47,600 nt of DNA from Dehalococcoidia bacterium (GTDB lineage Bacteria > Chloroflexota > Dehalococcoidia > Lucifugimonadales > UBA3495), in assembly GCA_030740155.1 (NCBI GenBank), contig JASLXV010000098.1, positions 1-47,600 of the forward strand. Direction: 5' to 3'. How positions within the stretch are numbered: the first letter of the stretch is position 1; each line of letters opens with the position of its first letter. The position numbers were made by a program, and so were the translations under genes. Below are positions 21,047 through 42,034 of this stretch, in pieces. The notes below the pieces were generated by a model. The model saw only the letters and a list, made by a program, of their open reading frames with translations, ran no database searches and had not been told where the DNA came from.

Positions 21047-21128
21047 GCTATTCCAAAACCTTGGGCGAACGGATCGGGCGCCGCTGCCCCGTTCGTGGTG
21101 AGCTTGTCGAACCACTTTTTGAGATAGT
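21047..21128. mobile_element. Short MITE-like element with REP-type core
   Basis: GCTATTCCAAAA ... TTTTGAGATAGT TIR around CCGTTCGTGGTGAGCTTGTCGAACCAC. Confidence 0.5.
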
Positions 21129-21239: not shown

Positions 21240-21518
21240 CTAGCCGGGTAGAAGGCCTTCGCCCACGAACAGGCCTTGCGCCTCTTCCAGCGTCGTGTCC
21301 GGCGCCGGTAGAATCAAGTCCGACTCGACAAGCTCGTCTATCGGCAATGGGGAGCCGTTATCCCGCACCACGTCCAGCAATTGCTTCAGAAGACCGCCGA
21401 AGCCGCTCCGGTCGGCGGCCGCCACGGCATCCACCAGTTGATTGTCAATCTCGTTCAGCTGGTCAACGAATGAGCCGGAAAGATTGTATTGGCCTTCGGT
21501 GGTGATACGAATGATCAT
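21240..21518 (-). CDS. PspA-associated protein (PspAA family)
   Basis: MIIRITTEGQY...LNEID...LL..VR..G..L..DEL..SDLILP.PD.TLEE...LF..EGLLPG; ATGA-coupled to pspA. Confidence 0.85.
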   Translation of the reverse strand: MIIRITTEGQYNLSGSFVDQLNEIDNQLVDAVAAADRSGFGGLLKQLLDVVRDNGSPLPIDELVESDLILPAPDTTLEEAQGLFVGEGLLPG

Positions 21519-22246
21519 GATTGGCTCCCCGGTAGTTGCTTCCTCTCTGCCGGCGGTAGGCTGGCTTTCAGGGCGCTGAGTTCATCCTCGACGTTCTGCG
21601 AGGAGGTCAGGGCCGCCAACTCCCGGCTGATGTCATCTTGAGCACCGGTGAAATCGTCCAGCACCCCGGCCCCAGCCAGTTCGTCAATGGCGCCGGCCCG
21701 GGCCCGCATCTGCTCCGTCTTGTTTTCGGCGCGCTCTACTGCCAGGCTGATGTCTCCCATCTCTTCGGAGATTCCCGAGAGGGCGGAACCGATGCGCACC
21801 TGCGCTTGGGCGGCGGTAAACTGGGCCTTGATGACTTCCTTCTTGGTGCGGAACGCGCTGACCTTTGCCTGAAGCCGCTGCTCGGCCACGGTTAGCTTCT
21901 CTTGCTCCAGTTCCATCCCGGAGATCTGCTCGTCCAATCCCTGGAGTTCCATGATGGCGGCCTGCTTGCGTTGCAGCGCCATCCTGGCCAGATCTTCACG
22001 CCCTGCCACCAAAGCCTGCCCGGCCTGGGTTTCCAGCCTGGAGATGTTTCCCTGTACCGTGGACGCTTGCTGCTGAATCCGCCGCTTGGCGGCAACCATC
22101 TCAACGACGCCGCGTTTGACGTTGCGCAGCATCTCCAGTTGCTTTTCGTACGAATAGTCGAGTGTTTCCCTTGGGTCCTCCGCTGAGTCCAATATCCGGT
22201 TCATCTTAGACTTGATGATGGTTGACATCCGCGAGAGCATTCCCAC
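21515..22246 (-). CDS. pspA: PspA/IM30 (ESCRT-III-like) family protein
   Basis: MGMLSRMSTIIKSKMNRILDSAEDP amphipathic start, coiled coil, AL..GREDLAR.AL.RK, ARAGAIDEL, VEDELSALK. Confidence 0.93.
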   Translation of the reverse strand: MGMLSRMSTIIKSKMNRILDSAEDPRETLDYSYEKQLEMLRNVKRGVVEMVAAKRRIQQQASTVQGNISRLETQAGQALVAGREDLARMALQRKQAAIMELQGLDEQISGMELEQEKLTVAEQRLQAKVSAFRTKKEVIKAQFTAAQAQVRIGSALSGISEEMGDISLAVERAENKTEQMRARAGAIDELAGAGVLDDFTGAQDDISRELAALTSSQNVEDELSALKASLPPAERKQLPGSQS

Positions 22247-22294
22247 GATGGACCCCCCTAGCTAATAATGACCCCGGCGGTGCCGGAGTTTGCC

Positions 22295-22492
22295 TCAATA
22301 ACCTCTGGACCTGCCCTTGCCACCGCTAACCAGGCCAACCAGACTAACAACAAGGGTAATTATACCAACGAATATCAGGATCCATCCCATCATGTCCAAG
22401 AGCCACTCGATCAGTCCGCTCTTCAATAGAAATCCCGTCACCACTAGGATTAAACCGATGACGATCCCGCCACCCTTACCGAGCATACCCAT
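22295..22492 (-). CDS. Small two-TM membrane protein upstream of pspA
   Basis: Two hydrophobic segments, basic C-terminus, RBS GGGAG; co-oriented with pspA. Confidence 0.7.
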   Translation of the reverse strand: MGMLGKGGGIVIGLILVVTGFLLKSGLIEWLLDMMGWILIFVGIITLVVSLVGLVSGGKGRSRGY

Positions 22493-22534
22493 TGTTGACT
22501 CCCTGTTATCCGCGAGGTCTTTCTGACTGATTCA

Positions 22535-22563
22535 ACCTTATATGCAACCGATATACAGGTCAA
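22535..22563 (-). promoter_or_regulatory. sigma70-like promoter of the pspA operon
   Basis: Minus strand TTGACC-N17-TAAGGT. Confidence 0.5.
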
Positions 22564-22722
22564 GTGGCCCATTGTCCGCAGATTGAGACGTATCGATTCC
22601 TGAATCCTTCGCGCCAGCCACCGATGGCGCGCCCAACAATCCGGAACTTGGCTCCACCTTGCTCCGGGTTCCGATGAAATCAGGACGCGGAGTCTCCGGA
22701 CGCCGGCCGGGGGACCACCAGA

Positions 22723-22751
22723 TTGACCTATAGGCCGGTCCTAAGTATACT
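22723..22751 (+). promoter_or_regulatory. sigma70-like promoter of DUF4178-DUF350
   Basis: TTGACC-N17-TATACT. Confidence 0.6.
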
Positions 22752-22992
22752 CAAATCCGCCGGAATCGCCAGGCAAGAGGCTATCCGATTGATTAGATGC
22801 GCCGTCGGGCTAGTCATGCCGCTCAATAATGCCGATTAGCACTCGCAAGCAGCCAACGGCGGCAGACCTGAGACGTTGGGATCGATACTTGCTCCGGCCC
22901 ATGGTGTTCCAACGCGGCCGCAGGTCAGCAGGCGGCACTCTTTTCCATTCGCGAGTCCTGCCTCTTCACCCAACCTACCGGAGTCTAACAAT

Positions 22993-23601
22993 ATGCTGCG
23001 GTCACTATTCGGTAGACGCAAAAGGAAGCGGGGCGCCGGCGCCGGTCCTGCCCAGGACGAGACTATCCGGGCCGCCAGGGTCGGCGATGTAGTATCTATC
23101 CAAGGACTGGCATTGGCGTATGACGATGTATACTTCTTTGTCGAGAGGCTTAACCGGTACACCAGCGACGCGGAAACCTGGTACGAGCTGACCTGCGTGG
23201 ACGGTGACACCCACATTTGGATCGATTGGACCGATGGCTACGATCTGTTCGTAACCGCGACCGACGACCCGGACCCGACCGGCTTGGAGAGCATCGGGCT
23301 TACCGAGGAACAGTTGATCGGTCTGGACGAAGAGCATTCCATCGACAATCAGATCGAGGTGGAAGGGGATCAGTACTTTTACAAGAACAGCTCCGAGGTG
23401 ATGTTCTACCAGGACAACCGGGGCCGGGGAAAAGGTTTCTACCTCTGGGATTTCATCCGGGAAGATGGAGAACGGGTCTTGGCCGTGTCCAAATGGGAGG
23501 GCAGACCCTTCGAGGTGGCCTTTGGCGAGGTCATCGATTCGAGCAGGATTACGCTTTACAAAGGCGAGCGCACGGACTCTGAGAGCCGGAGGTCGCGATG
23601 A
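22993..23601 (+). CDS. DUF4178-like protein
   Basis: RVGDVV, Y....TWYEL...DG...WI, IEVEG..Y, WDF...DG...LAVSKW......G..I; ATGA-coupled to DUF350. Confidence 0.72.
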   Translation: MLRSLFGRRKRKRGAGAGPAQDETIRAARVGDVVSIQGLALAYDDVYFFVERLNRYTSDAETWYELTCVDGDTHIWIDWTDGYDLFVTATDDPDPTGLESIGLTEEQLIGLDEEHSIDNQIEVEGDQYFYKNSSEVMFYQDNRGRGKGFYLWDFIREDGERVLAVSKWEGRPFEVAFGEVIDSSRITLYKGERTDSESRRSR

Positions 23602-24500
23602 TCGACGCATTTTCCGACACATTGAAGGTCTTTCCCCGAGGGTTGGTTTTCGTAGGTCTAGGGATGGTCATTCTGGTGATGGCCAAGCTGGCGCGGGATG
23701 TGGTGACCAGTTACCACATCGATGAGGAGGTCACCGAGAAGAATAACCTGGCGGTGGCCCTCAGGCTGAGCGGCTATCTCATCGGCGTGGTCCTGGTTTT
23801 CCTGGGAGCTTTGTACCAACCGCTGACTCTGATCGCGGTGGACGGGTTTGGCTTCGACCGGGCCTACGCCGAGGAAGTCCTTCGGGTGTTCGCCTATTCA
23901 CTCGGGGGAATCGTGGCGTTGAACCTGGTCCGGGTGCTCATGGACCGCCTGATACTGTACAAGTTCAACATAGAGAAAGAGATCGTCGAAGGCCAGAACG
24001 TGGGGACCGGCGCCGCGGAGTTCGGCATGTACGTCGCAACGGGGTTGATGATCGCCGGAGCCATCTCTGGCGAGGGCGGCAGCACCGAGACCGCGGCGGC
24101 CCTGAACGCGCTGGCCTTCTTCGGCATGGGGCTGGCATTGCTCGTCCTGTTCGCCCTCTTCTATCAGTTCACCACGCCATTCGACATCCACTCCGAGATA
24201 GAGGGCGGCAACACCGCGGTGGGTATCGCCTTCGGAGGCAACCTGATAGCCATCGGCCTGGTGACGTTCAAGGCGCTGTTCGGGGACTTCGTCGCTTGGG
24301 ACGAGAGCATCGCGGCGTTTCTCGCTTTCGCGGTGCTCGGCTTTGCGCTGCTCTACGTGCTCAGGATAATCATCGACAAGGCGATGCTGCCCACGGTCCG
24401 GATTTCCAACTCGCTGGCGGAGGGCCGCAATGTGGGCGTCGCTTTCGTCGAAGGCGCGGTGGTAATCAGCGCGGCCATGATACTGTTCCTGGCTATCTGA
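23598..24500 (+). CDS. DUF350 (YjfL-like) multi-pass membrane protein
   Basis: Four repeats of (I/L).EE(I/V)..x.N.AV(A/G): EEVTEKNNLAVAL, KEIVEGQNVGTG, SEIEGGNTAVGI, SLAEGRNVGVAF. Confidence 0.9.
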   Translation: MIDAFSDTLKVFPRGLVFVGLGMVILVMAKLARDVVTSYHIDEEVTEKNNLAVALRLSGYLIGVVLVFLGALYQPLTLIAVDGFGFDRAYAEEVLRVFAYSLGGIVALNLVRVLMDRLILYKFNIEKEIVEGQNVGTGAAEFGMYVATGLMIAGAISGEGGSTETAAALNALAFFGMGLALLVLFALFYQFTTPFDIHSEIEGGNTAVGIAFGGNLIAIGLVTFKALFGDFVAWDESIAAFLAFAVLGFALLYVLRIIIDKAMLPTVRISNSLAEGRNVGVAFVEGAVVISAAMILFLAI

Positions 24501-24566
24501 CCGGGCTTGGGCCATCGATCGCCGCTGGGCTAATGCCCGGTGTCCGTCGAGGGCCTGATGCCCAGT

Positions 24567-24635
24567 CCGTCTTCCCGGCGAAAGCCGGGAACCAGTCGGC
24601 GCCTCTCTGGATTCCGGCCTTCGCCGGAATGACGG
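24567..24635. repeat. CGTC-type palindromic repeat (double hairpin)
   Basis: CCGTCTTCCCGGCGAAAGCCGGGAACCAG...CTGGATTCCGGCCTTCGCCGGAATGACGG. Confidence 0.75.
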
Positions 24636-24725
24636 TGGTGGGGAGAGACCGTCCCACAATTTCGCCGGGGTAAAGCTTTTTACAAGCCAGTACGTTAGCG
24701 CACAGTTAGCCTGGTTCTTACATGA

Positions 24726-24776
24726 TGTCATTCCGAGCGAAGCGAGGAATCCCAGCGTATCGACGAGATTCCTCGC
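24726..24776. repeat. TGTCATTCCGAGCGAAGCGAGGAATC palindromic repeat
   Basis: Same family as 19578 and 32845. Confidence 0.7.
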
Positions 24777-24952
24777 GGAGCTTATCCTGAGCCGGGCCGG
24801 AGACTTCATTTCGCTTCGACTCTTGCGCCGGCCTTCTATCCAGGGAAAAGCCTTCTTGGGATAGTTGGAGGCTTCTGGGCCGCGCCTCCAGCCATCGGCC
24901 CGCCCAGTGGGTTTCCACGCCCGAGCACGCGCGGCAATCCTTGTTTGGTGCT

Positions 24953-24988
24953 CCCTTCTCCCTTTGGGGGAGGGGACGGGGGTGAGGG
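24953..24988. repeat. CTCCC..GGGAG/GGGGTGAGGG-type palindromic repeat
   Basis: CCCTTCTCCCTTTGGGGGAGGGGACGGGGGTGAGGG. Confidence 0.6.
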
Positions 24989-25023
24989 CCGTCCCCGAGA
25001 CGGTAACCGGTGGCCCGGAGGTT

Positions 25024-26148
25024 CTACGCCTCCACCCTTCTGAGGATCTCCTGCTGAGATTCCAGCTCCCGAGCGCGCTCCTCCCTCTCTTCCAGGAAGC
25101 CGTAGCCGCTCTCCACGATCTGGCCGATCGCCGTCTCGTCGACGTGGCAGCGGTTCACCGCCGGCTCGAGAATACCCTCGAAGAATGCCTCGTCGTCGAT
25201 GAGACTCTCCCAATTCGCGAGGGAGTCATCCAGCGAGCCATCGTACAGGCGCAGCAGGAATACGGCCCTGATGGGGTCCAATCCTTCGGCCAGGAACACC
25301 GGTACCCGCAGGTCAACGCCCCGGCCGGTCTCGAACTCAACCGAGTCCAGGTCCAGATCGAATTCGGTATCGGTGAAGTGGTCGTACCGGTCGATGTAGG
25401 ACTCGGTTTCAGCCAGCAACCGGCCGATGAATCGTCTCCCCTTCCGGGTGATGCCGAACACTCGAGCGCCCGCGGGGCACGCAATGAGGCCCTTCGACCG
25501 GAGAGCCGCCACCGCCACCTTCAACCCAGGGCCGGAGTCGCCTGAAAGCGGCTCCGTGATTTCGACCTCATGTTTGTCCAGGAAATACAGGATCGTCAGC
25601 GACTGCAGCCACTCCAGCAGCTCCTCTCTGGTCTCCCAGAGACCCATTTGCGTGGCGTAATCGAGGGCGTGGTACTGCTTCTCGATCCAAAGTCCCAACC
25701 AGGGAAGAGGTGACCCCCCATCACCCCCTTTCGGTGAAGGGATGCCGCGGGGATCTTCCCTCGCCGCCGCCGCTACGCTCGCGCTTGAAAGTTCAAGCTG
25801 CCGGGAAACGAGGCCGGCCATATCCAAGGCTTGCCCATCGCCATCGGAGAACGAAAACGTGCAACGGCCCCATCGCCACTCTTCGAAGGCCTCCAGGAAG
25901 ACCCCGTAGATCTCCGGAAGATCGGGGTTGGCCCGGAGATCGAACAGGGACGCCACCGCGCTCTGCTCCTCCTCGCCTGAAGGGAAGGTGTCGCCCAGGA
26001 GCTGGGAGACCGTGGAACCGGCGAATCCGGGAGGCAAAGCAACACTCAGGGCATCGTCCGGTTTCATGCCGGTCAACGATATTCGAACCTCGAACCAGCC
26101 GGTCCGGCTTGGCCTGGCGTTCTCCGACCTCGCCTCCGCGTTGGTCAT
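25024..26148 (-). CDS. Uncharacterised acidic protein; possible beta-grasp N-terminus and central winged-helix
   Basis: 374-aa ORF starting right after the lipoprotein stop; LRSKGLI...FGITRKGRRFI wHTH-like motif. Confidence 0.8.
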   Translation of the reverse strand: MTNAEARSENARPSRTGWFEVRISLTGMKPDDALSVALPPGFAGSTVSQLLGDTFPSGEEEQSAVASLFDLRANPDLPEIYGVFLEAFEEWRWGRCTFSFSDGDGQALDMAGLVSRQLELSSASVAAAAREDPRGIPSPKGGDGGSPLPWLGLWIEKQYHALDYATQMGLWETREELLEWLQSLTILYFLDKHEVEITEPLSGDSGPGLKVAVAALRSKGLIACPAGARVFGITRKGRRFIGRLLAETESYIDRYDHFTDTEFDLDLDSVEFETGRGVDLRVPVFLAEGLDPIRAVFLLRLYDGSLDDSLANWESLIDDEAFFEGILEPAVNRCHVDETAIGQIVESGYGFLEEREERARELESQQEILRRVEA

Positions 26149-26964
26149 TTAGAAACGGCCGTGGCCGCGGACTTTCATGGAGCCGGCGCCTCCCCGGCCG
26201 CCACTCCGGCCTCCTCCGCTCGATCGGCCTATCGAACTGGCCTTCCCGGAACTGCTCCGGGCGATGGCGCCACTGCTCTTGAAGCTGCCGCTGGTCTTCT
26301 GAGTCGACCGGTAGGTGTTGCGGTTCGAGCTGAGGTTGCCTTTGGCCGTCTGGTAGCTGGACCCGCGGAAAGACGACTGCTTGCTGCTGTAATTGGTGTT
26401 CCTCGCCACCTGCCTGCTATAGGAGGAGGATTGCCGGTAGCTGGTGCGCTGGCTCCGCATCCCGGCCCCGCGGGAGACCGGCGTGGAGTAGTAGTAACCA
26501 CGGGGAGAGATCGCGGATATCAGCATGTAGGTGAACAGAAAATTGCCCGCGCCGAAATGGCTGCCGTAGTAGCCGTTGCCGCCGTGCCCGCGCATATCGT
26601 ATTCATTGTTGGTCCCCTTGACGATGGAGAACAACTGGTCATCCTGGGCTTCGTTTATATCGTTGTCGCCGTTCAGGTCTTCCCATCCTTCCAGGGTCAG
26701 GGCGCTACCGTCCTGCTTGGCTCTGATGATGACCAAGCCGTCGCCCTCGTATATCTCGTTGACCTTGCGTTCGAAGTCGGTGGCGCTCTTGGAACTCTTG
26801 AACGCGGCTTGAACATCGTCCAGATTGATGAGTCCAGCGGCTCCGTCGGTGGCCGCCCAATCATCGTAGGTCGGGCCGCTGGCGCAGGCGGCGATCAGCG
26901 GGGCCGCGGCGACCAGCCCGCCCAAGGATATCGCGGTGCCGAGTTTGAATCGTCTCTTGCCCAT
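26149..26964 (-). CDS. Lipoprotein with long Ser/Arg/Gly-rich tail (YjfM/YgiB-like architecture)
   Basis: KRRFK N-terminus, lipobox IAA-C, DLNGDNDI Ca-binding-like loop, hydrophobic GNFLFTYMLISAI, low-complexity basic tail; RBS GGAGG. Confidence 0.85.
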   Translation of the reverse strand: MGKRRFKLGTAISLGGLVAAAPLIAACASGPTYDDWAATDGAAGLINLDDVQAAFKSSKSATDFERKVNEIYEGDGLVIIRAKQDGSALTLEGWEDLNGDNDINEAQDDQLFSIVKGTNNEYDMRGHGGNGYYGSHFGAGNFLFTYMLISAISPRGYYYSTPVSRGAGMRSQRTSYRQSSSYSRQVARNTNYSSKQSSFRGSSYQTAKGNLSSNRNTYRSTQKTSGSFKSSGAIARSSSGKASSIGRSSGGGRSGGRGGAGSMKVRGHGRF

Positions 26965-26979
26965 GTATCACCTCCGCTG

Positions 26980-29900
26980 CTAATCCCCGGCCGCAGCCAC
27001 GGCCGCAGGAAGATCGGCTATGAGAACCCTCACGTCGTCGTTCACCTGAATCGTTGGCGACGGCGGGGCGTCGGTCCGGGGTATGGGTAAGGTCAACAAG
27101 CGAGACAGAAACTCGCCGATGACCTGCCCTCGGAACCCGTCCCACGCCTGGAAACACCGTCGGATATAGTGTGCCACCGCCGATTTGTGAGAGGCGGCGC
27201 CCAGCATCTGGTTGGAAATCAAACCCTGCAACTCACTGATATGGCTCCTCCACAAATCGTCACCGGTCTGAAGAAAGACATTCCTGGCCAAGTCCGAGAA
27301 TTCCTGCCGTCCCAGCCCATCTTCCAGCCGTTCCAGCTTGCCGATGAACAACCGGCCAAGTTCCTGAGGCAGCAGGTTAAAATCGCCACCGAACAGTTCG
27401 GAGCAATCCACTCCATGATCCAATTGGACTTCATCCACGAGGCAGCCGAATTGGCCGGCATATTGCTCCAAGGTTATCGCGGGGAAGTGGCGCGCCACCA
27501 ATCGCGCCGCACCCTCCCGAGCCGAGCCGACGCAAAGATCCTTCAGGGTATTCGCGGCCATCACCCGGCGCCGCCAGCGGTAAAACAGGTCGGTCTGGAG
27601 GTCCACCACCGCCGCATAGTCTTGGATCAGGCCCCGCTGAGCTTCACCCTCCCGCTCGGCCATCTCCTGCACGCCCCGGATGTGCTCCTCGACCGCCGGC
27701 CCTGCCAGATAGATTCGGCCCGCCGCGTCCACTTCTCGGCAGTTGCCCAGCTTCAACACCCCGTCGACGTGAAGATTGATGAGGTTATCTTCCAGGGAGA
27801 GGATGGACCGGGTGACGCCGAAGCCGCCCTGCCGGCCGCTCCGGCCGTTGAGCTGGAGGTCGATTCGCGGCGTGTCGTGAATTTCAGTCCCGATGACGTG
27901 GAGCCCCAGAGAGAAGTCCAGGATGACCTGGCCATGGTCCGGACTCCCGTTCCCGATCAATGTAATCCGTAGCTGATGGCGGCCCCCAAGCTCTTCCCGG
28001 GCCGTGCAAAACAGGGTGGAGTTCGCCAGCTCGGCCTCCAGGATACCGGCTTCCGTTGGCGAGTGGCAGCTTACCAGCACGGACCCGGCGTCGCCGGACA
28101 GGAGCCGGCCGATGAGCTGGACGTACCGTCCCGCGATCCCGGCGCTGAGGCCGGGCTGCAAGAGGATGTCGGTGCCCCTACCGGCCATGTTCGTCGCCAC
28201 GGTGACCGCACCGAGGTTCCCGGCGTCCTTGATGGTTTGCGCTTCCAGATGACAGCTCAACGCGTTGAGCAGGTTATGGCCGATCCCCTCTTCCGACAAC
28301 AAGCGGCTGAGTTCTTCCGAGCGCTCCACCGTCTGTGTTCCGACCAGAACCGGCTGGCCGACGCGATGACAGGCGATCACCTGGTCCAGAATGGCCGAGA
28401 GCTTCTCCTTTCTGGTCAGATACACTTTGTATCCCAGGTCGACCCGGTTGAGGGGCCGGGCCGGAGGAAGTACCGCGACCGGCAAACCGTACTTCCGCAA
28501 GAACTCGTCCGAGGAACTCGACGCGGTGCCGGTCATCCCGGAAATGCTCTCGTACCTTCGAACGAATCCTTCGACGGAAATCTGTCCCAGCGTTTCACAG
28601 TCCGCGTGGGGGGTGACACCCTCTTTGGCTTCCAGGGCCGCGTGCAAACCCTGCTGGTAGATACAATCCGCCTTGGGCCGCCCGGTAGACCGGTCGATCA
28701 AGACTATGGAGTCCTCGGTGTCGAAATAATCCACGTCCCGGTGGAGCAGCAGGAAAGCCCGAAGCATCTGGTAGACCTGGCTGCCGAGGTTGTATTGGCG
28801 GGCCAGCCTCCGGCTGATCCCGTCGGACTTCTTCCGGCGCTGCGCCAGCGTCCAATCCTGCCTCGCCCGGATGGAATCCAACGATTCCTCCAGGGCCCGG
28901 CCGTCGTGGAATGGTCCCAGACGTTGCTCCAGGAAATCCCGGCCCTTTTCGGTCAGGGTGACGAACCGATGGCCGGGGTCGATGGCGTAATAAAGCTCCG
29001 GCGTGAGATCGGCGAAGTCCAGGTCGGCGACGGCCTGCAACCGTCTGAACCAGCCTGGATGTTCGGACAAATACTCCTTCAACGTGGAATTCTCCGGCTC
29101 CGCCAGCAGCAATTGGGCCAGCAGCCGAGTTTCGGTACCGGAGTCGAGTCCCGGCCGGGAGAGTTGGCCGGGCAGGCCCTGGGCTTCCTCACGCTGCAGC
29201 CCGATCATCTCCGCAACGACATTCTTGACCCTGGTGGTGGCCCGGTTGTTGCCGATTGGATTTCCCGAGATTATCATCGGCGTGGCCGCCTCATCGATCA
29301 GGGCGTGATCGATCTCGTCGATGATCGCTACCTCCAGCTTTCCCTGGACCTGCGCCTCTGCGGAGAATTTCAGGTTGTCCCTGAGGAAATCGAAGCCCAA
29401 CTCCCGCATGGTGCTGTAGACAATGCCCTTGCGGTACGCCAGCTTTCTTTCTCCATCATCCATGTAACCGAGGACCGCCCCCGCGCTAATACCGAGGGAC
29501 CGGTAGACCGGGGCCAGGAGTTCCGCGTCCCGGGCGGCCAGGTAATCGTTGGCGGTGATGATGTGAACCGAGCGGCCGCGAAGGGCATGCACCACGGCCG
29601 GGAAGGCGGCGGCGATGGTTTTGCCTTCACCGGCATTCATCTCCACGATGCTTCCCTGCAACATGTGGAGCCCGGCCAGCAGTTGCTCCTCCGTGGCTTG
29701 GATGCCGAGGATGCGGCCGATCGACGCCTTGACCATCGCGAATGCCTCGGGCAATATCTCGGCTGTTCCCGAGTGCCGTGCCCGATGCCTCAGGCGCAGC
29801 ATCGCGATGTTTGGATCACCGTGGGCGTTTGATTGGAGGTCAAATCGGAGGATCCGGTCCAGAATGATCTGGCAGGCGGCGGAGGAGACTTTCCGTGACG

Positions 29901-29994
29901 CGGCCGGCCGGCGCCTTTTTTCAGAGACGCTGTTGAGCCCCTTGCTAAACAATTCGGCCGGCAACCACGAAGCGTGCAGCAACCAGAACCCCAA
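26980..29994 (-). CDS. secA: SecA-family ATPase paralog without C-terminal Zn motif
   Basis: EMNAGEGKT, TANDYLAARD, IIDEIDHALIDEA.TPMIISG, GMTGTA, GQPVLVGT, ATNMAGRGTDI, RID.QL.GRSGRQG; exact start uncertain. Confidence 0.9.
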   Translation of the reverse strand: MGFWLLHASWLPAELFSKGLNSVSEKRRRPAASRKVSSAACQIILDRILRFDLQSNAHGDPNIAMLRLRHRARHSGTAEILPEAFAMVKASIGRILGIQATEEQLLAGLHMLQGSIVEMNAGEGKTIAAAFPAVVHALRGRSVHIITANDYLAARDAELLAPVYRSLGISAGAVLGYMDDGERKLAYRKGIVYSTMRELGFDFLRDNLKFSAEAQVQGKLEVAIIDEIDHALIDEAATPMIISGNPIGNNRATTRVKNVVAEMIGLQREEAQGLPGQLSRPGLDSGTETRLLAQLLLAEPENSTLKEYLSEHPGWFRRLQAVADLDFADLTPELYYAIDPGHRFVTLTEKGRDFLEQRLGPFHDGRALEESLDSIRARQDWTLAQRRKKSDGISRRLARQYNLGSQVYQMLRAFLLLHRDVDYFDTEDSIVLIDRSTGRPKADCIYQQGLHAALEAKEGVTPHADCETLGQISVEGFVRRYESISGMTGTASSSSDEFLRKYGLPVAVLPPARPLNRVDLGYKVYLTRKEKLSAILDQVIACHRVGQPVLVGTQTVERSEELSRLLSEEGIGHNLLNALSCHLEAQTIKDAGNLGAVTVATNMAGRGTDILLQPGLSAGIAGRYVQLIGRLLSGDAGSVLVSCHSPTEAGILEAELANSTLFCTAREELGGRHQLRITLIGNGSPDHGQVILDFSLGLHVIGTEIHDTPRIDLQLNGRSGRQGGFGVTRSILSLEDNLINLHVDGVLKLGNCREVDAAGRIYLAGPAVEEHIRGVQEMAEREGEAQRGLIQDYAAVVDLQTDLFYRWRRRVMAANTLKDLCVGSAREGAARLVARHFPAITLEQYAGQFGCLVDEVQLDHGVDCSELFGGDFNLLPQELGRLFIGKLERLEDGLGRQEFSDLARNVFLQTGDDLWRSHISELQGLISNQMLGAASHKSAVAHYIRRCFQAWDGFRGQVIGEFLSRLLTLPIPRTDAPPSPTIQVNDDVRVLIADLPAAVAAAGD

Positions 29995-29996
29995 TC

Positions 29997-31067
29997 CTAG
30001 AGGGTCTTCAGTAGAGCCGCCCAGGTATAGCGGCTGGAGCTAATGTACACCAACCGGTCCCCCACCGCCAGAAATAGGTCGACGAAACTGAAGTGCACCT
30101 GTTCGTCCCGAATCACACCAACCAGGTTTACGTGCTGACTCAGCAGTTTGCTGGCGATATGCTCGTAGCTCATGGAGTCTTCCACCGGCGAGTCCACCTC
30201 GGCGCTGGCCAGCGTGCCTCTAACCAGATTACTGGTCATCGCACGGGTGAGAAGGGTCACGCCGGGGTCCTGGGTTTCTTGGACCAGCAGATTGTTGGCC
30301 ATGTCCAAAGTATAAACCAGAGCTACTCCCTCGAGGTTGTTAAACAACAGCTTGTGTTTCGGATTCAGACATTCCGCAACGACTCTCAAATGGGGGTTCA
30401 GGTGGTGGATCACCGACGCTACCGACGCGGCCACGCTGTCGCTATTGGGATCATCGTAGTTGGTGCTCAATATGATGACCCTGGTGGCGTGGCTCAGCAA
30501 CGCGCGGCGATAGGTTTCTTCCTCCAGCGGGGACCCCCGAACAAACGAAACGTTGGGATGGCTGAAAGGGAGACTGGTCAGGGTGTCGGTAACTATGAAG
30601 ATATCATCGCTTTTGTGGCTGGGGTCCGACACGAACTCTTCGATGATCTGGCGAACCCTGCCTTCGTTGGGAAAGTTGATGATCAACAGGTGGCCCTTGG
30701 CTTGAAGATTTGCCATCCCGGTCTGCTCCTTGATTCGCAGGTCTAGAACCCAGTCGACCAACATGCCGGCGGTGGTGGTGAACGCCACCAGCCCGACGAG
30801 GACGATAAACACCACGGTGCCGGCGCGCGCCCCGAGGGTCGACGCTGAATAATCTCCATATCCAATGGTGGTTATGGAGATGATGCTATACCAAAAGCTG
30901 TCGGCAATGGTCAAGTCGGGCTGGGCCGGGCTCTCGAAGAAGAAGAAGGCCAGGGCGTTCCCCAGAACACTGGCCAAGAGGACCGCGACCATTGCCAGAA
31001 TCCCGAGGCTTCTCTTCCGCCGGAACCGGCGCATCAATCTGCTGATAGAGTAAATCATTATTTGCAA
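29997..31067 (-). CDS. 2-TM potassium channel with RCK (TrkA-N) domain
   Basis: DSFWYSIISITTIGYGD pore/selectivity filter; HLLII, FVRGSP, A..VIIL, VVAEC. Confidence 0.93.
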   Translation of the reverse strand: MQIMIYSISRLMRRFRRKRSLGILAMVAVLLASVLGNALAFFFFESPAQPDLTIADSFWYSIISITTIGYGDYSASTLGARAGTVVFIVLVGLVAFTTTAGMLVDWVLDLRIKEQTGMANLQAKGHLLIINFPNEGRVRQIIEEFVSDPSHKSDDIFIVTDTLTSLPFSHPNVSFVRGSPLEEETYRRALLSHATRVIILSTNYDDPNSDSVAASVASVIHHLNPHLRVVAECLNPKHKLLFNNLEGVALVYTLDMANNLLVQETQDPGVTLLTRAMTSNLVRGTLASAEVDSPVEDSMSYEHIASKLLSQHVNLVGVIRDEQVHFSFVDLFLAVGDRLVYISSSRYTWAALLKTL

Positions 31068-31210
31068 TCGGCCCCACGATCGGGCGGCTTGATGTCCTCT
31101 AGTGTACCGTCTTGCAAATAGCTTTGCATCGGCAAAATGATGCGATATTCACTCTCCACAATCGTCATCCCGGCGAGGGCCGGGCATAAAGCCGTTTGCG
31201 AGCCACGAGA

Positions 31211-32659
31211 CTAATTCCGCAGCTTCATTATAACCAGTCCCGAATCGTGGCCCGGCCCGTCACATTCGTCCAGCCGGGCCAACAGATGACCTCGGGCCAG
31301 CAGTATCCTGGCTCCAACCTCTGGCTCCGCATCGAGAAACCACGCTCCGAGGGGTGAGTCCAGTGTCCAGCTATCGGTTATCGAGGACTCCAGCCCGGCT
31401 CGCTGGAACACGTTCAGGTACTCTTGCCGGTCCCGGCGGAACTCCTTTTCGGTTCGGAACGGAATTGGCGTCACGTAGTAGTCGCTCGAGAGGTACAACC
31501 CCAACTCATTTTCAAACACCTGCATCAGATCGGAAAACGGCCACCATCCTTCCAGGGCGAAGAAGAGATTTTCCGGTATATCCTGCGGGACCCGGTGATA
31601 GAAAAAGTCCTCCTCCGACTCCACCATCCTGGCGGTAATCGGGATTTTATCCCGATAACCCAGAATGCGCTCGGCGGCAGCGTCACGGAGGAATACGAAC
31701 GGTATGTTGCCGTTGGTCACATCCACCAGGACCCGGACGCCGTCGATGTCATATAGCAGGGCGGCGTGTTGCCAAAAGCGCATGTAACGCTTGGCGAACT
31801 GGAAATCGAAGGTGGCCAGCAGCTCTCGCAGCTTCTCCACCGGCACCGGGCCTTCCGCGTTCTCGCCGGCGATGATGTACTCGGAGGTCAGCCCGTAGTG
31901 GTCGGTCAGGAACTTCAGCGCCTGAACCTTTTCCGAACAGACGGCGCCGCCGCCTTCGATGATGTTGTCAATGGTCTCATCGCCGGACTTGTACACCAGT
32001 TTCTTGCCGATGAAGCGTGAGTAGTTTTCAAATTGACTGTTCCAGACGGTCCGGGCCAGGGCCTCCAACAGCCTCAGCTTGTCGCCGGTCCCGGTCATCT
32101 GCAGTATGGCTTCGGCATCGGCGGAGCCGACCTCACGGTCCAGGGAGGTGCGCACGAAATTGGCGTACTTCGCCTCATCCCGGGCCCATTTGCGCTTGTG
32201 GAACCCGGGCCAATTGCGGTCATAGCCGACGTCGATGCGGTCGATGGCCACGTCTATGATCGAAACGTCCTGGCCGGCAACCCGAGTCCGGTGGTTGGCC
32301 GGCACATCATCCAATCCAAGAAGCCGGCCGCCGTCCTTAAAGACAACCCCATGAAACATGTGGGTCAGGAGGCCGCGGTCGGAGCTTGCGTAGACCAGGT
32401 CTTGTATGGCGTACAGTTCGTCCGCGGAGTGCTGGGTGATCCGGGACTCCTTCAGCAAGGGTTGGATCGGCGCGCGGTAGAGGTGCTTTTCCAGCAGGGC
32501 GCCCAGAGTTAGTGAGTTATCTTCGGGCTCGATACGCAGGGCGCACTTCCTGGTTGATACCAGGTCGGTGAACTGCAGTATTTGACCGGCGGTGCTTTCC
32601 ATTGGGGCACGTTCAGAGGAAGTATCTGCCTGGCGCTTCGTTCCCTGGTTAACCATCAA
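31211..32659 (-). CDS. Transglutaminase-like/arylamine-N-acetyltransferase-fold protein with uncharacterised N-terminal domain
   Basis: GGGAVC241SEK...QH298AALLY...VLVD313VTNG Cys-His-Asp pattern. Confidence 0.7.
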   Translation of the reverse strand: MMVNQGTKRQADTSSERAPMESTAGQILQFTDLVSTRKCALRIEPEDNSLTLGALLEKHLYRAPIQPLLKESRITQHSADELYAIQDLVYASSDRGLLTHMFHGVVFKDGGRLLGLDDVPANHRTRVAGQDVSIIDVAIDRIDVGYDRNWPGFHKRKWARDEAKYANFVRTSLDREVGSADAEAILQMTGTGDKLRLLEALARTVWNSQFENYSRFIGKKLVYKSGDETIDNIIEGGGAVCSEKVQALKFLTDHYGLTSEYIIAGENAEGPVPVEKLRELLATFDFQFAKRYMRFWQHAALLYDIDGVRVLVDVTNGNIPFVFLRDAAAERILGYRDKIPITARMVESEEDFFYHRVPQDIPENLFFALEGWWPFSDLMQVFENELGLYLSSDYYVTPIPFRTEKEFRRDRQEYLNVFQRAGLESSITDSWTLDSPLGAWFLDAEPEVGARILLARGHLLARLDECDGPGHDSGLVIMKLRN

Positions 32660-32844
32660 TATGCCACCGTCCCGTCCCCGCGGAACTCGAGGGCTCCGGC
32701 CGTACGATCATTGGGCCTATTGGAGAAAAGTCTCCCCGCGGCATTCGGGGAGGGCCGGACGACATTGATCCGATTGCGAGGAACCGAGTCCTTACCGGTC
32801 CGCCGGCGGGTTATTAGGAGTCAGTCAACTCGGTTTCTTGCAAA

Positions 32845-32912
32845 TGTCATTCCGAGCCGTAGGCGAGGAATCTCATTGTTACGCTGAGATTCTTCGCTTC
32901 GCTCAGAATGAC
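32845..32912. repeat. TGTCATTCCGAG...CTCAGAATGAC palindromic repeat
   Basis: TGTCATTCCGAGCCGTAGGCGAGGAATCTC...GAGATTCTTCGCTTCGCTCAGAATGAC. Confidence 0.75.
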
Positions 32913-32976
32913 GTTGGCTATGCCTCTGTTTCTTGTTACCGGCCCTTGAACAAATTGCCAATCCTTGCCAAGGGGT

Positions 32977-33022
32977 AATTCTCCTCAAGTCCCCCTTTAT
33001 GAAGGGGGATTCAGGGGGATTT
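32977..33022. repeat. CCCCCTTT..AAGGGGGATT palindromic repeat
   Basis: Same family as 16045. Confidence 0.65.
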
Positions 33023-33075
33023 CGCTCGTCAATCCAGGCGTCTGCTCACGGATCGGCAATCATGCTGTCTAAGAG

Positions 33076-34446
33076 TCAGTCGTCGGCGGTGGGCCCAATG
33101 GCGACGGACTCGGGTATCGACGAAACCGGCGCGGTACTCGTCCGCACGGTAGTCTGGGTTATCGGCCTCCGCACCGCCTTCGGGTCGATGCCTGCTTTCA
33201 AAGCGGCCATTACGCCGGCGGCTTCCCAATAGTTCGCCACCGGGTGAAACTGTCCCGGCGCCCAGGGCAGGAGCGTCAGGTCGTTCTTCATAACCGTCCG
33301 GTTTTCCCGCACGGCGATTACCGGGATCCCTTGCTCCAGGGCGGCCAACGTCGGCAGACCCAGGCATCCGTCGGGAATTACCAGGCAGGACACGTCGCTG
33401 GCCGTCAGCACGCCATGGTGCGCCATGGCCTCGGGGCCGGTCACGATCTTCGGGCTCCTCTGGAGCCCCTTCAAGACACTCTGCATGAAGGTCAGGGAGA
33501 TCGCTTCGGCCGCCATCCTCGGATCAACCACACCCGTCTCCATGTTGGCGATCTCTTGATTTTCCAGCATGGGAGAGTGGGCGGACGGGACATCGAACAG
33601 CGTGGAGATCGTATGGGTGAGCATCGCCTCCACACCGCCCCAGGGATTGAGCATGTTGCCGTCGCTCTCGAAATAATCGATGTGGTAGCTGAGCGGAACG
33701 GCAATCACGGACGAAATGGCGACCGCATCGTAGCTCCGCCGGTGGTCGTTCAAGTTGGCGACCAGCCGGTCGATGCCTTCCACCGTGCCTCCCACCCGGC
33801 CTGAGTCCATGTATTGAGACCGCATGTCGAGGGGAGGTTCCAGCCGCAGGATCATCGGGCAGATCAGCCCATATGAGGAGCGGGCCGCATGCACCGCGTT
33901 GATAGCCGCATCCACGAAGAACTCATCTTGGTGGGCGTCGACCACCACCAGGACCCGGTTGGACCTCACGGGTTGCAGCCCGATTGACCCCATCAGCAAC
34001 CGGCTGATCGCACTCCCTTCCACGTACAGGGTGTTGGGGGAGATGTCGATCAGGTCCGACCCGTTCAAGACATTCGGGTGGGTGATCAGCGTGTCACAAA
34101 TGGAGGCCAGGAGGGTGGCGACCGGCGTCGCGTCCCCGGCGTGTCCGCCGATCTCCGCGCCGACGCCCGTCGGCACCAGCAAGACGGCGTTGAAGGCCTG
34201 ACTGTTTTCGATCAGCCTCTTGCGGAATCTCAACACCGAAGCCCGGAGGGAGGGCGCCAGGTCCCGGTGGTTTCGAAGAAGCGCGACCTCACACTTGTAC
34301 CGGCCACCCGTGGACTCGGCGACCACGATCCGGACGGGCATCTCGTCATCGGAGATATGCCGGCCTAGGCCCGAGGAGACTTGCTCCAGGATGCTGCCGC
34401 GCCCGGCATCGACCGGGAACTCGGTTTCGGTTTCATGCAGATACAT
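33076..34446 (-). CDS. DUF3326 family protein with N-terminal extension
   Basis: VLLVPTGVGAEIGGHAGDA.P, TLITHPNVLNG, YVEG, GGVEA...H, AHSP, DPR.AAE, IAV.EN, V.NY.EA.G. Confidence 0.85.
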   Translation of the reverse strand: MYLHETETEFPVDAGRGSILEQVSSGLGRHISDDEMPVRIVVAESTGGRYKCEVALLRNHRDLAPSLRASVLRFRKRLIENSQAFNAVLLVPTGVGAEIGGHAGDATPVATLLASICDTLITHPNVLNGSDLIDISPNTLYVEGSAISRLLMGSIGLQPVRSNRVLVVVDAHQDEFFVDAAINAVHAARSSYGLICPMILRLEPPLDMRSQYMDSGRVGGTVEGIDRLVANLNDHRRSYDAVAISSVIAVPLSYHIDYFESDGNMLNPWGGVEAMLTHTISTLFDVPSAHSPMLENQEIANMETGVVDPRMAAEAISLTFMQSVLKGLQRSPKIVTGPEAMAHHGVLTASDVSCLVIPDGCLGLPTLAALEQGIPVIAVRENRTVMKNDLTLLPWAPGQFHPVANYWEAAGVMAALKAGIDPKAVRRPITQTTVRTSTAPVSSIPESVAIGPTADD

Positions 34447-35689
34447 GAGACCCCATCCCGCACTGAGCTGCGAACTGATCGAAGGTGTAGTGGCTCTTCG
34501 ACACCATCTCCCCCTGGGCCGTCAACGCGTAGACCGATGGCAGAGGGACTCCGTTGAACAGGTGCGCCTTGGTCATCGTATAGGCCCCTGCGTTGTTGAA
34601 CACCACCTTGTCGCCCAGCTTGAGCTTGTGGTCGAATCGGTACACGCCGAACAGGTCTCCCGCCAAGCAGGTGCATCCCGCCAGGAGGTATTCATGGGCC
34701 GCGCCGTCATCGTGACCAACGATGTCCGGTTCGAAGTCGTATTCGAACACCTCGGGCATGTGGTTGATCGAGCTATCCAGCACCGCCACAGTCGAGCCGC
34801 CGCTCTGGAATACGTCGAGGATGGTGGACACGATGTACCCCGCCGTCCGCACGAGGGCTGATCCCGGCTCGAAGAAAACCTGAACGTCGTAGCGGGACTT
34901 CAGGAAATCCACGGCGGCGGCCAGTTCGGCGAGACCCTGTCCATCGTCGAAGAGGTAGCCGCCACCCAGGTTGACCCATTCGAGCCCGGCCAGTATCCTG
35001 CCGGCGCGAGAGTTGATGTGCTCCACGGTAGCCAGTAGCTGTCCAAAGTCGGAGGAATCACAGTTGGTGTGGAAGAGGATGCCTCGCAGGCCGGCGAAAC
35101 GAGCGGGGTCCCTATCGTATTCGGTAATCAGGTCCTCCAATGGGACCCCCAATTTTGAGCCGGGCCGGCAAGGGTCATAGCGTTCGTCATCGACGAATGA
35201 GATTTGAGGATTAATGCGTATGCCGCAACTGGTGCCGTCTTTGATGCGGTCCCGGAACCTGTCCCACTGGTTCAGGGAGTTGAAGGAGAGGAAGTCGCAG
35301 AGCGATCCAATACCCTCTACCTCGTTATCGCGAAGGCCGGGGGTGGTGATGTGTATCGACCCGCCGGGTGAGACGATGCCGCGGGCCAGCCGCGCCTCGT
35401 ATAGCGAGCTGACCGCGAACCCATCCAGGCGAGGCGCCATCACCCGCAAAGCGTCGGCAACTGAGAGCGACTTTATGGCGAACAGCAGCCGGCAAAGTCC
35501 GTCCTTCCGAATGGTCTGAGCTTGGTCGAGGAGTTGGTGAAGGATGCCCTCGTCATACACGAAGGCCGGAGTGGTGATCCGGTCGAGCCCGTCCGGGAAC
35601 GTGCGCACCCAGTCGAACGCGGGCACCCGGTCAACGGAAGGGGAGCACTGTATGGCCACATCAGGTTGTTCGATATCGATCAATCGCAC
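34433..35689 (-). CDS. nspC: Carboxynorspermidine decarboxylase-like PLP enzyme (fold III)
   Basis: TPAFVYDE, LLFAIK, SSLYEARL, SFNS..QW, GIRINP..S...YDPC...SKLG, HTNC, VNLGGG, EPG, HMPEV, TCLAGD.FG, YTM.K...FNG. Confidence 0.85.
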   Translation of the reverse strand: MRLIDIEQPDVAIQCSPSVDRVPAFDWVRTFPDGLDRITTPAFVYDEGILHQLLDQAQTIRKDGLCRLLFAIKSLSVADALRVMAPRLDGFAVSSLYEARLARGIVSPGGSIHITTPGLRDNEVEGIGSLCDFLSFNSLNQWDRFRDRIKDGTSCGIRINPQISFVDDERYDPCRPGSKLGVPLEDLITEYDRDPARFAGLRGILFHTNCDSSDFGQLLATVEHINSRAGRILAGLEWVNLGGGYLFDDGQGLAELAAAVDFLKSRYDVQVFFEPGSALVRTAGYIVSTILDVFQSGGSTVAVLDSSINHMPEVFEYDFEPDIVGHDDGAAHEYLLAGCTCLAGDLFGVYRFDHKLKLGDKVVFNNAGAYTMTKAHLFNGVPLPSVYALTAQGEMVSKSHYTFDQFAAQCGMGSHVSA

Positions 35690-37840: not shown

Positions 37841-38332
37841 GTGGCAGGCATGACCAATATTAGGTCTAGAAAGCCGTACACGATGTTGGCCCTGGCCGGC
37901 GTCATTGGGCTGCTCGCCGCCTGTTTCGGCACGCCGTCAGTCTCCGAGTATAGAACTTCACTCCGCTGCCTGGACTGCCCAACTTTGCGGGTCCTCCGAG
38001 TCATCGATGGCGACACCTTCGAAAGCTGGAATGGCATGGTCCGGATGTTTGGGATCGATGCCCCGGAGCGAGACGACCGGTGCCACCGCCAGGCCACCAG
38101 CGGCTTGAGGCAGCTGGCCGGCAAGGATGTGAGAGTGGAGCCGGGACCAAGGGAGCGGGACCCCGGTGGAAGGCTCCTGTACTACACTTACACGATCGCC
38201 GGCAACAGCATCGACGAGATACTGGTCCGCGAAGGACTGGCCCGCGCCTGGACCAGGGACGGACAGCACCGCGAGGTTCTGATGGGTTTGGAGCAAGGAG
38301 CACGGAACGCCGGCGCGGGGTGCCTCTGGTAA
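37841..38332 (+). CDS. Thermonuclease (SNase) family lipoprotein
   Basis: LAA-C lipobox, RVIDGDT, VRMFGIDAPE, D..GRLL.Y, LVREGLAR, AR..G.G.LW; start may be 37850 or 37883. Confidence 0.88.
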   Translation: MAGMTNIRSRKPYTMLALAGVIGLLAACFGTPSVSEYRTSLRCLDCPTLRVLRVIDGDTFESWNGMVRMFGIDAPERDDRCHRQATSGLRQLAGKDVRVEPGPRERDPGGRLLYYTYTIAGNSIDEILVREGLARAWTRDGQHREVLMGLEQGARNAGAGCLW

Positions 38333-38832
38333 TGCTCTACCAAGCCGCCGTTTTCCTGCACATTCTTTCCGCCATCACCTGGGTGGGTGGGACGCTGTTC
38401 CTGGTGATCGTGATGGTCCCCTTGTCCCGCCGGGAAACGGTAGCCTCCGGGCGGGGGCTCAACCTACTGAGGCAGGCGGCCCGGAGGTTCGTGCCGGTGG
38501 CGTGGGCGTCGATAGTGGTGCTGGCGGTGACCGGCGTATATCTAGCCTGGGACCACTGGGGCATACGTCCGGGCAACTTTTTCACCTCTGGCGGCCATTT
38601 CATCAGCACCCTTCAGGCCAAGACAGGGCTGGCCGTCCTAGTGATCGGGCTGAGCCTGTTCCACGACTTCCTGTTGGGCCCCCTCGTCGTGGGGCAGCTT
38701 GAGGGCCCGCGCGGCCCCGGAGACCCTCCCGCTCCCACCTGGGGAAGGCGGTTGCTGTTGGTCCTGGCCCGGGTGAACCTGCTCCTGGTCTTGATTATCC
38801 TCTTCCTTGCGGTCAGCTTGACCCGGCCCTAG
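38332..38832 (+). CDS. CopD/DUF4149-like four-TM membrane protein
   Basis: TAATG overlap; FLHILSAITWVGG.LF, RF...AW.....L.VTG, K..L...S..HDF..GP. Confidence 0.8.
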   Translation: MLYQAAVFLHILSAITWVGGTLFLVIVMVPLSRRETVASGRGLNLLRQAARRFVPVAWASIVVLAVTGVYLAWDHWGIRPGNFFTSGGHFISTLQAKTGLAVLVIGLSLFHDFLLGPLVVGQLEGPRGPGDPPAPTWGRRLLLVLARVNLLLVLIILFLAVSLTRP

Positions 38833-41968: not shown

Positions 41969-41997
41969 TTGACACTTCTCCCTCCCGGGGGTAATCT
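41969..41997 (+). promoter_or_regulatory. sigma70-like promoter
   Basis: TTGACA-N17-TAATCT, ~37 bp before ATG 42035. Confidence 0.6.
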
Positions 41998-42034
41998 CTT
42001 GGCAGATTCGGCGGATGACATTTGGGGGGGCTCC

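Follow-up and report, generated by a model that had tools for sequence, protein, structure and literature searches.

What joins a second SecA, a lipoprotein and an enzyme with a Cys-His-Asp triad to genes of the PspA, DUF350 and polyamine families? The question is raised by a cluster of 12 contiguous genes (positions 21,240 to 35,689) on a 47,600-nt contig of a Dehalococcoidia bacterium (Chloroflexota; Lucifugimonadales; UBA3495; GenBank assembly GCA_030740155.1, contig JASLXV010000098.1). The window, i.e., the whole stretch that was analyzed, is one entire contig of a 3.6-Mb genome that is 93.7% complete. An initial annotation, made from the sequence alone, proposed a membrane-stress/polyamine system in which a polyamine is made by an NspC decarboxylase, conjugated by a transferase and coupled to dedicated export, K+ flux and ESCRT-III-like membrane repair. 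We confirmed all 12 open reading frames (ORFs) with their coordinates and strands, as well as the left flank of unrelated acyl-CoA genes it had described (a thiolase and two CoA-transferases in Pfam). Comparison with related loci identified a four-gene core, consisting of the enzyme, a partner protein, the SecA paralog (hereafter SecA2) and the lipoprotein; we propose tentatively, and at somewhat less than an even chance, that this core attaches a polyamine to a target, possibly the lipoprotein, before export.

A four-gene core and its modules

The core genes all lie on the minus strand and encode the Cys241-His298-Asp313 enzyme (482 aa; 31211..32659, with a likely start at 32602), the acidic partner or adaptor (374 aa; 25024..26148), the lipoprotein (271 aa; 26149..26964) and SecA2 (26980..29994), the last with SecA_DEAD, P-loop, PP_bind and SW matches over the Pfam cut-offs. 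Named families matched nine of the 12 products in Pfam and NCBIfam scans (the 65-aa ORF lay outside the scan); the 482-, 374- and 271-aa products matched no Pfam or NCBIfam family. GC and GC3 of the cluster are those of the genome.

A scan of GTDB genomes with the 482-aa enzyme confirmed 243 loci, and the relatives were titled Dehalococcoidia or Chloroflexota. Counts out of 80 given here refer to the best 80 of the 243 and to a distance of 10 kb from the enzyme; many of these loci are closely related, and some are truncated, either at a contig end or at the 10-kb limit. SecA2, lipoprotein and partner all accompanied the enzyme in 61 of the 80 loci. Gene by gene, SecA2 was found in 66, partner and lipoprotein in 61 each, NspC in 52, DUF350 in 51, DUF4178 in 47, DUF3326 in 46, the K+ channel in 39, and PspA with PspAA in 34. 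The neighborhood thus recurs in dozens of genomes and is not a product of chance, in keeping with the conserved unit first described. As for the linkage then expected, SecA2, enzyme and partner are linked, PspA is mostly unlinked, and the NspC-DUF3326 pair is optional.

Each gene was also searched for separately in a single, fixed set of 121 genomes from the order. Of these, 32 have the enzyme and 35 the two-repeat DUF350, including all 32 with the enzyme. The partner was present in 29 (28 of them enzyme-positive) and SecA2, at E 1e-150, in 25 (24 enzyme-positive), some of the misses being divergent copies that were seen in the loci. Beyond the order, the enzyme occurred in 0 of 250 other genomes of a phylum sample (completeness at least 80%) and in 5 of 300 other genomes of a class sample, where the four genomes outside the order all belong to one family of another order. 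The system is therefore patchy across the phylum. Viral contigs, searched with two alignments, yielded no relatives.

In a second Dehalococcoidia order, loci carry the enzyme, a PaaK-like pair, a GNAT, SecA2, lipoprotein and partner; three of four are complete, the fourth is cut by a contig end, and PspA and the channel are absent from them. A metagenome scan with the enzyme (best 80 of 83 confirmed loci) included 15 loci of one lineage in which a methyltransferase, SecA2, lipoprotein, partner, enzyme, NspC and DUF3326 follow in that order, with NspC in 13, partner in 10, lipoprotein in 8, DUF3326 in 7 and SecA2 in 6 of the 15, counts that are limited by short contigs. Members of this lineage's 90% clusters are labelled Desulfobacterales, and the flanks examined held no DUF350, DUF4178, channel or PspA. 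Since the same four genes recur in the second order and in Desulfobacterales, there in a different order, we regard enzyme, partner, SecA2 and lipoprotein, and not PspA, as the core and the remaining genes as modules.

These data also bear on whether unrelated modules could be held together by common descent alone, or the neighborhood be fortuitous. In several genomes the block is indeed broken into smaller ones, close relatives make up most of the 80 loci, and NspC-DUF3326 occurs twice without the enzyme in one genome (G300). However, the pair has rejoined the cluster at several sites: it lies upstream in either order, on the downstream side of DUF4178, or within the block, a pattern that speaks for selection and against inertia. 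Co-occurrence also extends to unlinked genes (DUF350 in all 32 enzyme-bearing genomes), and another phylum has the core in a different arrangement. Such an explanation is highly improbable overall and, for the four-gene core, largely refuted.

The clusters of most relatives add genes that the source genome lacks and that the initial annotation had missed, namely a PaaK-like adenylating enzyme, a GNAT and a shorter PaaK-like paralog apparently without a P-loop; the PaaK-like pair and GNAT were seen at L103:10444-17057, L092:10542-14337, L216:7269-12326 and L226:11059-13666. Upstream of the enzyme and divergent from it, five of the 80 loci (L048, L049, L053, L057 and L070) have a gene for TelA (toxic-anion resistance) together with a membrane partner; PadR-DegV lies upstream of the enzyme in other loci, and USP genes flank some.

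PspA (ESCRT-III-like; 21515..22246, minus strand; PF04012, E 2e-24) is in the window an accessory neighbor, flanked by PspAA (92 aa; 21240..21518, minus strand; PF22743, E 1e-32), an accessory and lineage-specific one, and by a 65-aa hydrophobic protein encoded upstream of pspA (22295..22492, minus strand). The ORF of the latter has a ribosome site, and its hydrophobicity points to probably two membrane helices; it was detected in 10 of the 80 loci. No CesT/Tir protein accompanies them. The K+ channel, of the two-transmembrane (2TM) type with an RCK domain (29997..31067, minus strand; PF07885 [Ion_trans_2] and PF22614), has a GYG filter conserved in 52 sequences. An integrated membrane-stress response that couples polyamine conjugation, export, K+ flux and PspA repair would fit the presence of PspA in 32 of 32 enzyme-bearing genomes, the adjoining PspA-PspAA genes of 34 loci, the TelA and USP genes beside some loci, and the PspA and K+ channels of known DUF350 operons (PMC11237479, as far as its available text goes). 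Yet PspA was found in 55 of the 121 genomes, 23 of them without the enzyme; among the 31 other enzyme-bearing genomes, only 2, each a member of the window's family, have it at most 15 kb from DUF350; it pairs with PspAA rather than CesT/Tir; and PspA and channel are absent from Desulfobacterales and second-order loci. We consider this response improbable. PspA-PspAA and the channel are add-ons, and the channel and NspC-DUF3326 are optional. In the form first proposed, the couplings to ESCRT-III-like repair and to K+ flux are thus not supported, and the supposed PspA paralog is the only PspA found in the source genome.

The enzyme and its predicted partner

The model of the enzyme (pLDDT 80) comprises a ubiquitin-like/beta-grasp domain (residues 25-143; against SAMP1, Z 7.0, rmsd 2.9, 81 aligned), a papain fold resembling arylamine N-acetyltransferases (NATs) and transglutaminases, and a C-terminal domain. 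The best nine matches of the papain-type core are NATs and amide synthases (top Z 10.7, rmsd 4.5, 206 aligned). Transglutaminases follow (TglA, Z 8.9; factor XIII, Z 8.6), then proteases, PNGase and isopeptidases (Z 6-7.7). C241, H298 and D313 are invariant in 30 homologs with identity down to 17%, so that the papain-fold Cys-His-Asp transferase of the initial annotation is borne out by the invariant triad and by a predicted acyltransferase fold. Like the Fusarium NAT1 (F. verticillioides, 7qi3) and GdmF (8oom), the enzyme has the NAT fold, the triad and four collinear motifs, although the sequence match to 7qi3 is weak (E 0.9). Unlike them, it shares only ~13-18% identity, has no PF00797 match (Pfam, E 0.1), and adds the ubiquitin-like and C-terminal domains and a predicted partner subunit. 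No Transglut_core match (PF01841) was found either, and neither a signal peptide nor a membrane segment was predicted. An Atlas feature score of 0.87 for the NAT family serves as a lead only, and Foldseek gave no match at E 0.001 for the enzyme or the partner model, the C-terminal part of the latter being barely covered. Far homologs (P0325-P0378 in alignment A5), full-length and 17-22% identical, keep the triad and lack the partner-binding motif.

The partner, modeled at pLDDT 89, has a beta-grasp/ubiquitin-like domain (residues 16-158), a winged-helix-like part and a helical C-terminus. Its fold matches are weak, with Z ~6 for both the beta-grasp and the winged-helix parts. The winged-helix assignment made at first thus keeps some support, and the ubiquitin-like domain and predicted partner role had been missed. 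The protein is acidic (net charge -32), and Atlas returned no credible match for it. A role in ubiquitin conjugation was considered and rejected: both beta-grasp domains are N-terminal and fused, there are no Gly-Gly ends, and no E1, E2 or JAB protein is encoded among the 12 genes.

Co-folding, the complex screen that had been suggested, paired enzyme and partner with a score of 0.65, against 0.01 for the best control. Among reference pairs, 116 of 157 solved and 2 of 215 mismatched ones attain this mark, a calibration that applies only roughly, since custom alignments were used here. Runs agreed in at least 80% of contacts, with a partner pLDDT of at least 83. In the predicted complex, enzyme residues 288-294, just before His298, contact partner residues 72-80, and the enzyme would bind its partner beside the catalytic His. 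R291 and R294 of the enzyme and N74-P75-D76 of the partner are invariant in the input alignments, and the second order keeps both contact motifs (together in L226). Of 100 enzyme sequences, 95 have R291; three of the five that do not are from one family (f84), in which F288 and R291 are lost from the enzyme and no partner gene was found (0 of 3), although a very divergent copy could escape detection; in two of its loci the slot between lipoprotein and DUF350 is empty. Used as a query, the Desulfobacterales partner retrieved 33 relatives and named no further phylum.

A partner docked beside the active-site His could also act as an inhibitor. The enzyme might accordingly be a hydrolase (amidase, deacylase or protease), restrained or aimed by its partner, that cleaves off an acyl or polyamine group or shortens the tail of the lipoprotein, and proteases, PNGase and isopeptidases do appear in its fold list. 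We regard this as unlikely: the best fold matches are transferases, the locus holds no ligase to make the substrate, and a putrescine-making fusion fits synthesis better. This fusion occurs in a Poribacteria-labelled lineage of 24 loci (L124-L147), in which the enzyme is fused behind a full agmatinase in 20, adjoins it as a separate ORF in 2 and is cut in 2. Two of the fusions are 62% identical and represent one lineage, with one cluster member labelled Ca. Poribacteria. The gene before the fusion is often one for DnaJ-TPR (9 loci) or DUF711 (4 loci).

Export genes, polyamine supply and the proposed reaction

SecA2 is indeed an additional paralog, 31% identical to the housekeeping SecA (878 aa, encoded by a separate gene) in a genome in which one SecY was found. 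Walker A is exact in 25 of 27 copies and Walker B in 27 of 27, and later ATPase motifs are kept. Compared with the housekeeping SecA, SecA2 proteins of both phyla have three common inserts of ~70, 33 and 66 residues; the window's protein lacks the C-terminal zinc tail and scores below every SecA2 NCBIfam cut-off. Accessory SecA2 proteins are known from SecA2-only systems in mycobacteria and Listeria, and from SecA2/SecY2 systems for glycosylated serine-rich proteins. The present system resembles them in having a second SecA with intact ATPase motifs and no zinc tail, encoded near a Ser-rich exported protein and a modifying enzyme, and it shares with SecA2-only export the single SecY. It differs from the known systems in its three inserts, and from SecA2/SecY2 in the absence of SecY2, Asp1-3 and glycosyltransferases, no gene of the locus being left over for such a role.

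The lipoprotein keeps its lipobox Cys in 81 of 81 homologs. It combines a weakly hydrophobic signal (the second lowest of 15 lipobox-like ORFs, a small control to which we attach minor weight), an acidic N-domain and a basic Ser/Gly/Arg/Gln-rich tail of net charge +21. Across homologs the tail consists of 21% Ser, 15% Arg, 14% Gly and 8% Gln, and Q185, Q222, R173, R177 and R215 are invariant in 17 sequences from both phyla. A Tat signal was rejected since the twin Arg is not conserved.

The optional polyamine module comprises an NspC-like, carboxy(nor)spermidine-decarboxylase-like PLP enzyme (418 aa; 34433..35689, minus strand; Orn_DAP_Arg_deC) that overlaps the DUF3326 gene (33076..34446, minus strand; PF11805, E 2e-97). 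The decarboxylase scored 296 bits on TIGR01047, where the cut-off is 409; its nearest solved structures are CANSDCs (E 3e-75), and Lys73 is conserved. No solved structural relative of DUF3326 was found. Both genes occur in the same 20 of 121 genomes, adjacent to each other, and 19 of these are enzyme-positive; the two form an obligate pair. According to the available part of a preprint (bioRxiv 10.64898/2026.06.12.731819), PavA, a CANSDC-annotated fusion, and PavB, a DUF3326 protein, are both required for N-(5-aminopentyl)pentane-1,5-diamine. The pair here is alike by description: a CANSDC-like decarboxylase with DUF3326, no CASDH, and in the pavettamine case a symmetrical triamine that needs both. 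By this analogy DUF3326 is likely the amine-condensing partner of the decarboxylase, and the two may make a symmetrical triamine that need not be norspermidine. Unlike pavABC, as described in that text, the window has a 418-aa decarboxylase alone without a Rieske fusion, and no JmjC hydroxylase among the 12 genes, so the product is not that of the pavettamine cluster. In G300, which has no main system, two NspC-DUF3326 pairs lie among IS elements and defence-like genes (L116:9244-11767 and L117:8617-11175), with one DUF3326 split into two frames; possibly the pair moves independently.

Synthesis of the polyamine by NspC, as first proposed, does not suffice by itself. The dehydrogenase partner of the CASDH/CANSDC pathway was not found in the genome (CASDH-type domain PF03435, 0 matches), and the pair is absent from 13 of the 32 genomes that have the enzyme. 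The more general link to polyamines gained outside support from the PavA/PavB precedent and the agmatinase fusion. Elsewhere the genome encodes a stand-alone speD-speE pair and an agmatinase. A glutathionylspermidine (GSP) synthetase or SpeE completing the canonical operon from elsewhere in the genome had been named as counter-evidence. A SpeE does exist, but this agrees with that description in the letter only, the protein being a 303-aa housekeeping-type enzyme beside speD and not the 577-aa membrane-fused form. The absence of an ATP-grasp ligase was upheld, GSP synthetase (PF03738) being found neither in the source genome nor in any of the 121 genomes of the order.

We propose that the enzyme, bound to its acidic partner in the cytoplasm, would form an amide bond between a polyamine and an acyl group, the latter likely on the Gln-containing tail of the lipoprotein as the putative acceptor, through acyl-enzyme chemistry such as that of NATs and transglutaminases. 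DUF3326 and the decarboxylase would supply a symmetrical triamine; genomes without the pair could instead use spermidine or putrescine made by housekeeping enzymes. SecA2 would then export the awkward basic lipoprotein through the single SecYEG, and DUF350 and DUF4178 would act as membrane-side partners, as in known operons. DUF350 (23598..24500, plus strand; PF03994, E 1e-50) is a YjfL-family membrane protein with two repeats, and the acidic DUF4178 protein (22876..23601, plus strand; PF13785, E 1e-10) likely starts at the ATG at 22993, conservation beginning at residue 40.

The same chemistry could serve a small molecule. A NAT-type amide synthase would move an acyl group from acyl-CoA, supplied by a PaaK-like ligase in most relatives and by the housekeeping pool in the source genome, to a polyamine; DUF350, lipoprotein and channel would handle or sense the resulting N-acyl-polyamine at the membrane, and SecA2 would only export the lipoprotein. 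NATs and amide synthases heading the fold list, the four collinear motifs and the agmatinase fusion without export genes all point this way, as do the PaaK-like gene, found in 22 of 121 genomes, all enzyme-positive, and often co-directional with NspC-DUF3326, and the DegV fatty-acid-binding gene before the enzyme in 9 of 80 loci. This route leaves SecA2, lipoprotein and partner, the steadiest companions of the enzyme, unexplained, and the source genome and nine others have no PaaK-like gene; we judge it a close rival of lipoprotein modification, possible but on the whole somewhat more doubtful. Polyamine N-acyl transfer by the enzyme, which is common to this route and to modification of the lipoprotein, is probable. 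Among the 32 enzyme-bearing genomes, 13 have PaaK only, 10 the NspC-DUF3326 pair only, 9 both and none neither; this complementarity was not used as evidence, since a naive Fisher test (p 0.0016) weakened to p ~0.08 after correction for lineage (~20 lineages with 5 and 7 losses, counted by hand on a quick tree).

Several observations weigh against modification of the lipoprotein by the core. NATs use thioester donors and small acceptors, and the NAT-like fold and motifs of the enzyme outscore the transglutaminase-like ones (Z 10.7 vs 8.9). The PaaK-like ligase, present in 22 of the 32 enzyme-bearing genomes, favors a small acyl donor. The two-helix-finger tip Tyr of SecA2 is replaced in 25 of 27 Dehalococcoidia copies and kept in three Desulfobacterales copies examined, so translocase activity is not certain. 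The co-loss of partner and interface in f84 is a single evolutionary event, and in Desulfobacterales the interface motif is altered in both proteins. Neither SecA2 nor lipoprotein nor partner was found beside the fused gene of the agmatinase lineage (3 loci, 10 kb each side), NspC-DUF3326 is missing from the 13 genomes noted above, and in five near-complete genomes parts of the cluster lie >150 kb apart. Taken as one chain, a new class of bacterial modify-and-export machine in which a two-subunit ubiquitin-domain NAT-fold enzyme polyaminates a surface lipoprotein with a CASDH-independent triamine and a private SecA exports the product, the proposal is more doubtful than its chemical step and, as a whole, rather unlikely.

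Known systems, genomic context and biological meaning

Two groups of DUF350 operons described by Ravi et al. (2024; PMC11237479, available text) come closest to the cluster. Group 2 comprises CesT/Tir-PspA, a 7TM-spermidine synthase, 8TM DUF350, the Ctha_1186 lipoprotein and DUF4178; group 3, of the E. coli yjf type, an ATP-grasp ligase, a K+ channel, 4TM DUF350 and a DUF1190 lipoprotein. The cluster shares with them DUF350, DUF4178, a lipoprotein and polyamine enzymes, and here also a K+ channel and PspA. It lacks the CesT/Tir-PspA dyad, the ATP-grasp ligase and the 577-aa membrane-fused (7TM) SpeE, and has in their place a NAT-fold enzyme and the partner specific to it, together with an accessory SecA and NspC-DUF3326. 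The lipoprotein matched DUF1190 in only 1 of 17 sequences (E 0.12), and the lipoprotein of a classical operon (L088) at a probability of 1%. That operon, DUF2170-PspA-7TM/SpeE-DUF350-lipoprotein (L088:5688-11811), is a single case in a genome without the enzyme (G276), and the proteins of its contig look unlike the rest of the order and are possibly foreign to the bin. YgiC/YjfC-type ATP-grasp enzymes are reported as peptide-spermidine ligases, YgiC being encoded beside a lipoprotein (PMC11762307, a review, in its available part). Polyamine amide formation encoded beside a lipoprotein is common to both, with ATP-grasp chemistry there and, as we infer, a Cys acyl-enzyme here. The cluster thus fits neither published group, but would work like them and appears by analogy to be an undescribed variant of the DUF350/lipoprotein/polyamine operons. 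Its combination of genes was put forward at the outset as a candidate new system, and we found no published description of it in a search outside of which most subscription papers lay; 'SecA' and 'transglutaminase' do not occur in the main text of PMC11237479 as available, and PMC4284462 and bioRxiv 10.64898/2026.10.24.761521, in their available parts, add nothing on function.

In four Dehalococcoidia genomes without the main enzyme, the gene after a single-repeat DUF350 encodes an unrelated Transglut_core protein, apparently secreted and C-terminally anchored (L084:8742-10094, L085:9273-10618, L086:9562-11003 and L087:1-1105; one scanned, three aligned). In this unit DUF350 is paired a second time with a protein of this class of fold.

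The right flank of the cluster holds a CopD-domain protein (38080-38832) and a SelA-like PLP protein (41951-43342), both unrelated to it. Promoter and terminator scans of the locus gave results at chance level. Intergenic REP-like repeats at 24540-24740, 32780-33020 and 21060-21110 recur in the genome (tens to >100 BLAST matches). RNA contigs with 0-1 differences, from runs of three studies, cover pieces of 10 of the 12 genes and a flanking gene too; they carry no strand, level or co-transcription information and were not counted as proof of expression, and many of their stray joints are due to the repeats.

DUF350/lipoprotein/polyamine operons are widespread and include the E. coli yjf and ygi genes, and their physiological substrate is unknown. 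Since the present variant swaps the ligase for an unrelated fold and adds a SecA, it narrows the common function to the making of polyamine amides in connection with a lipoprotein that is exported, and it names a testable acceptor, the lipoprotein. Three uncharacterized families become assayable, namely a two-subunit NAT-fold enzyme, a SecA subfamily with inserts and the NspC-DUF3326 pair, all of whose proteins are soluble or can be expressed in E. coli by standard means; through the pair, DUF3326 would gain a role beyond a single toxin cluster. If the proposal is true, the system would be a polyamine counterpart of glycosylation-coupled accessory Sec systems, and DUF350 operons in general, including E. 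coli yjf/ygi, would be protein-polyamination systems with interchangeable ligases of the ATP-grasp, aminopropyltransferase and NAT/transglutaminase folds.

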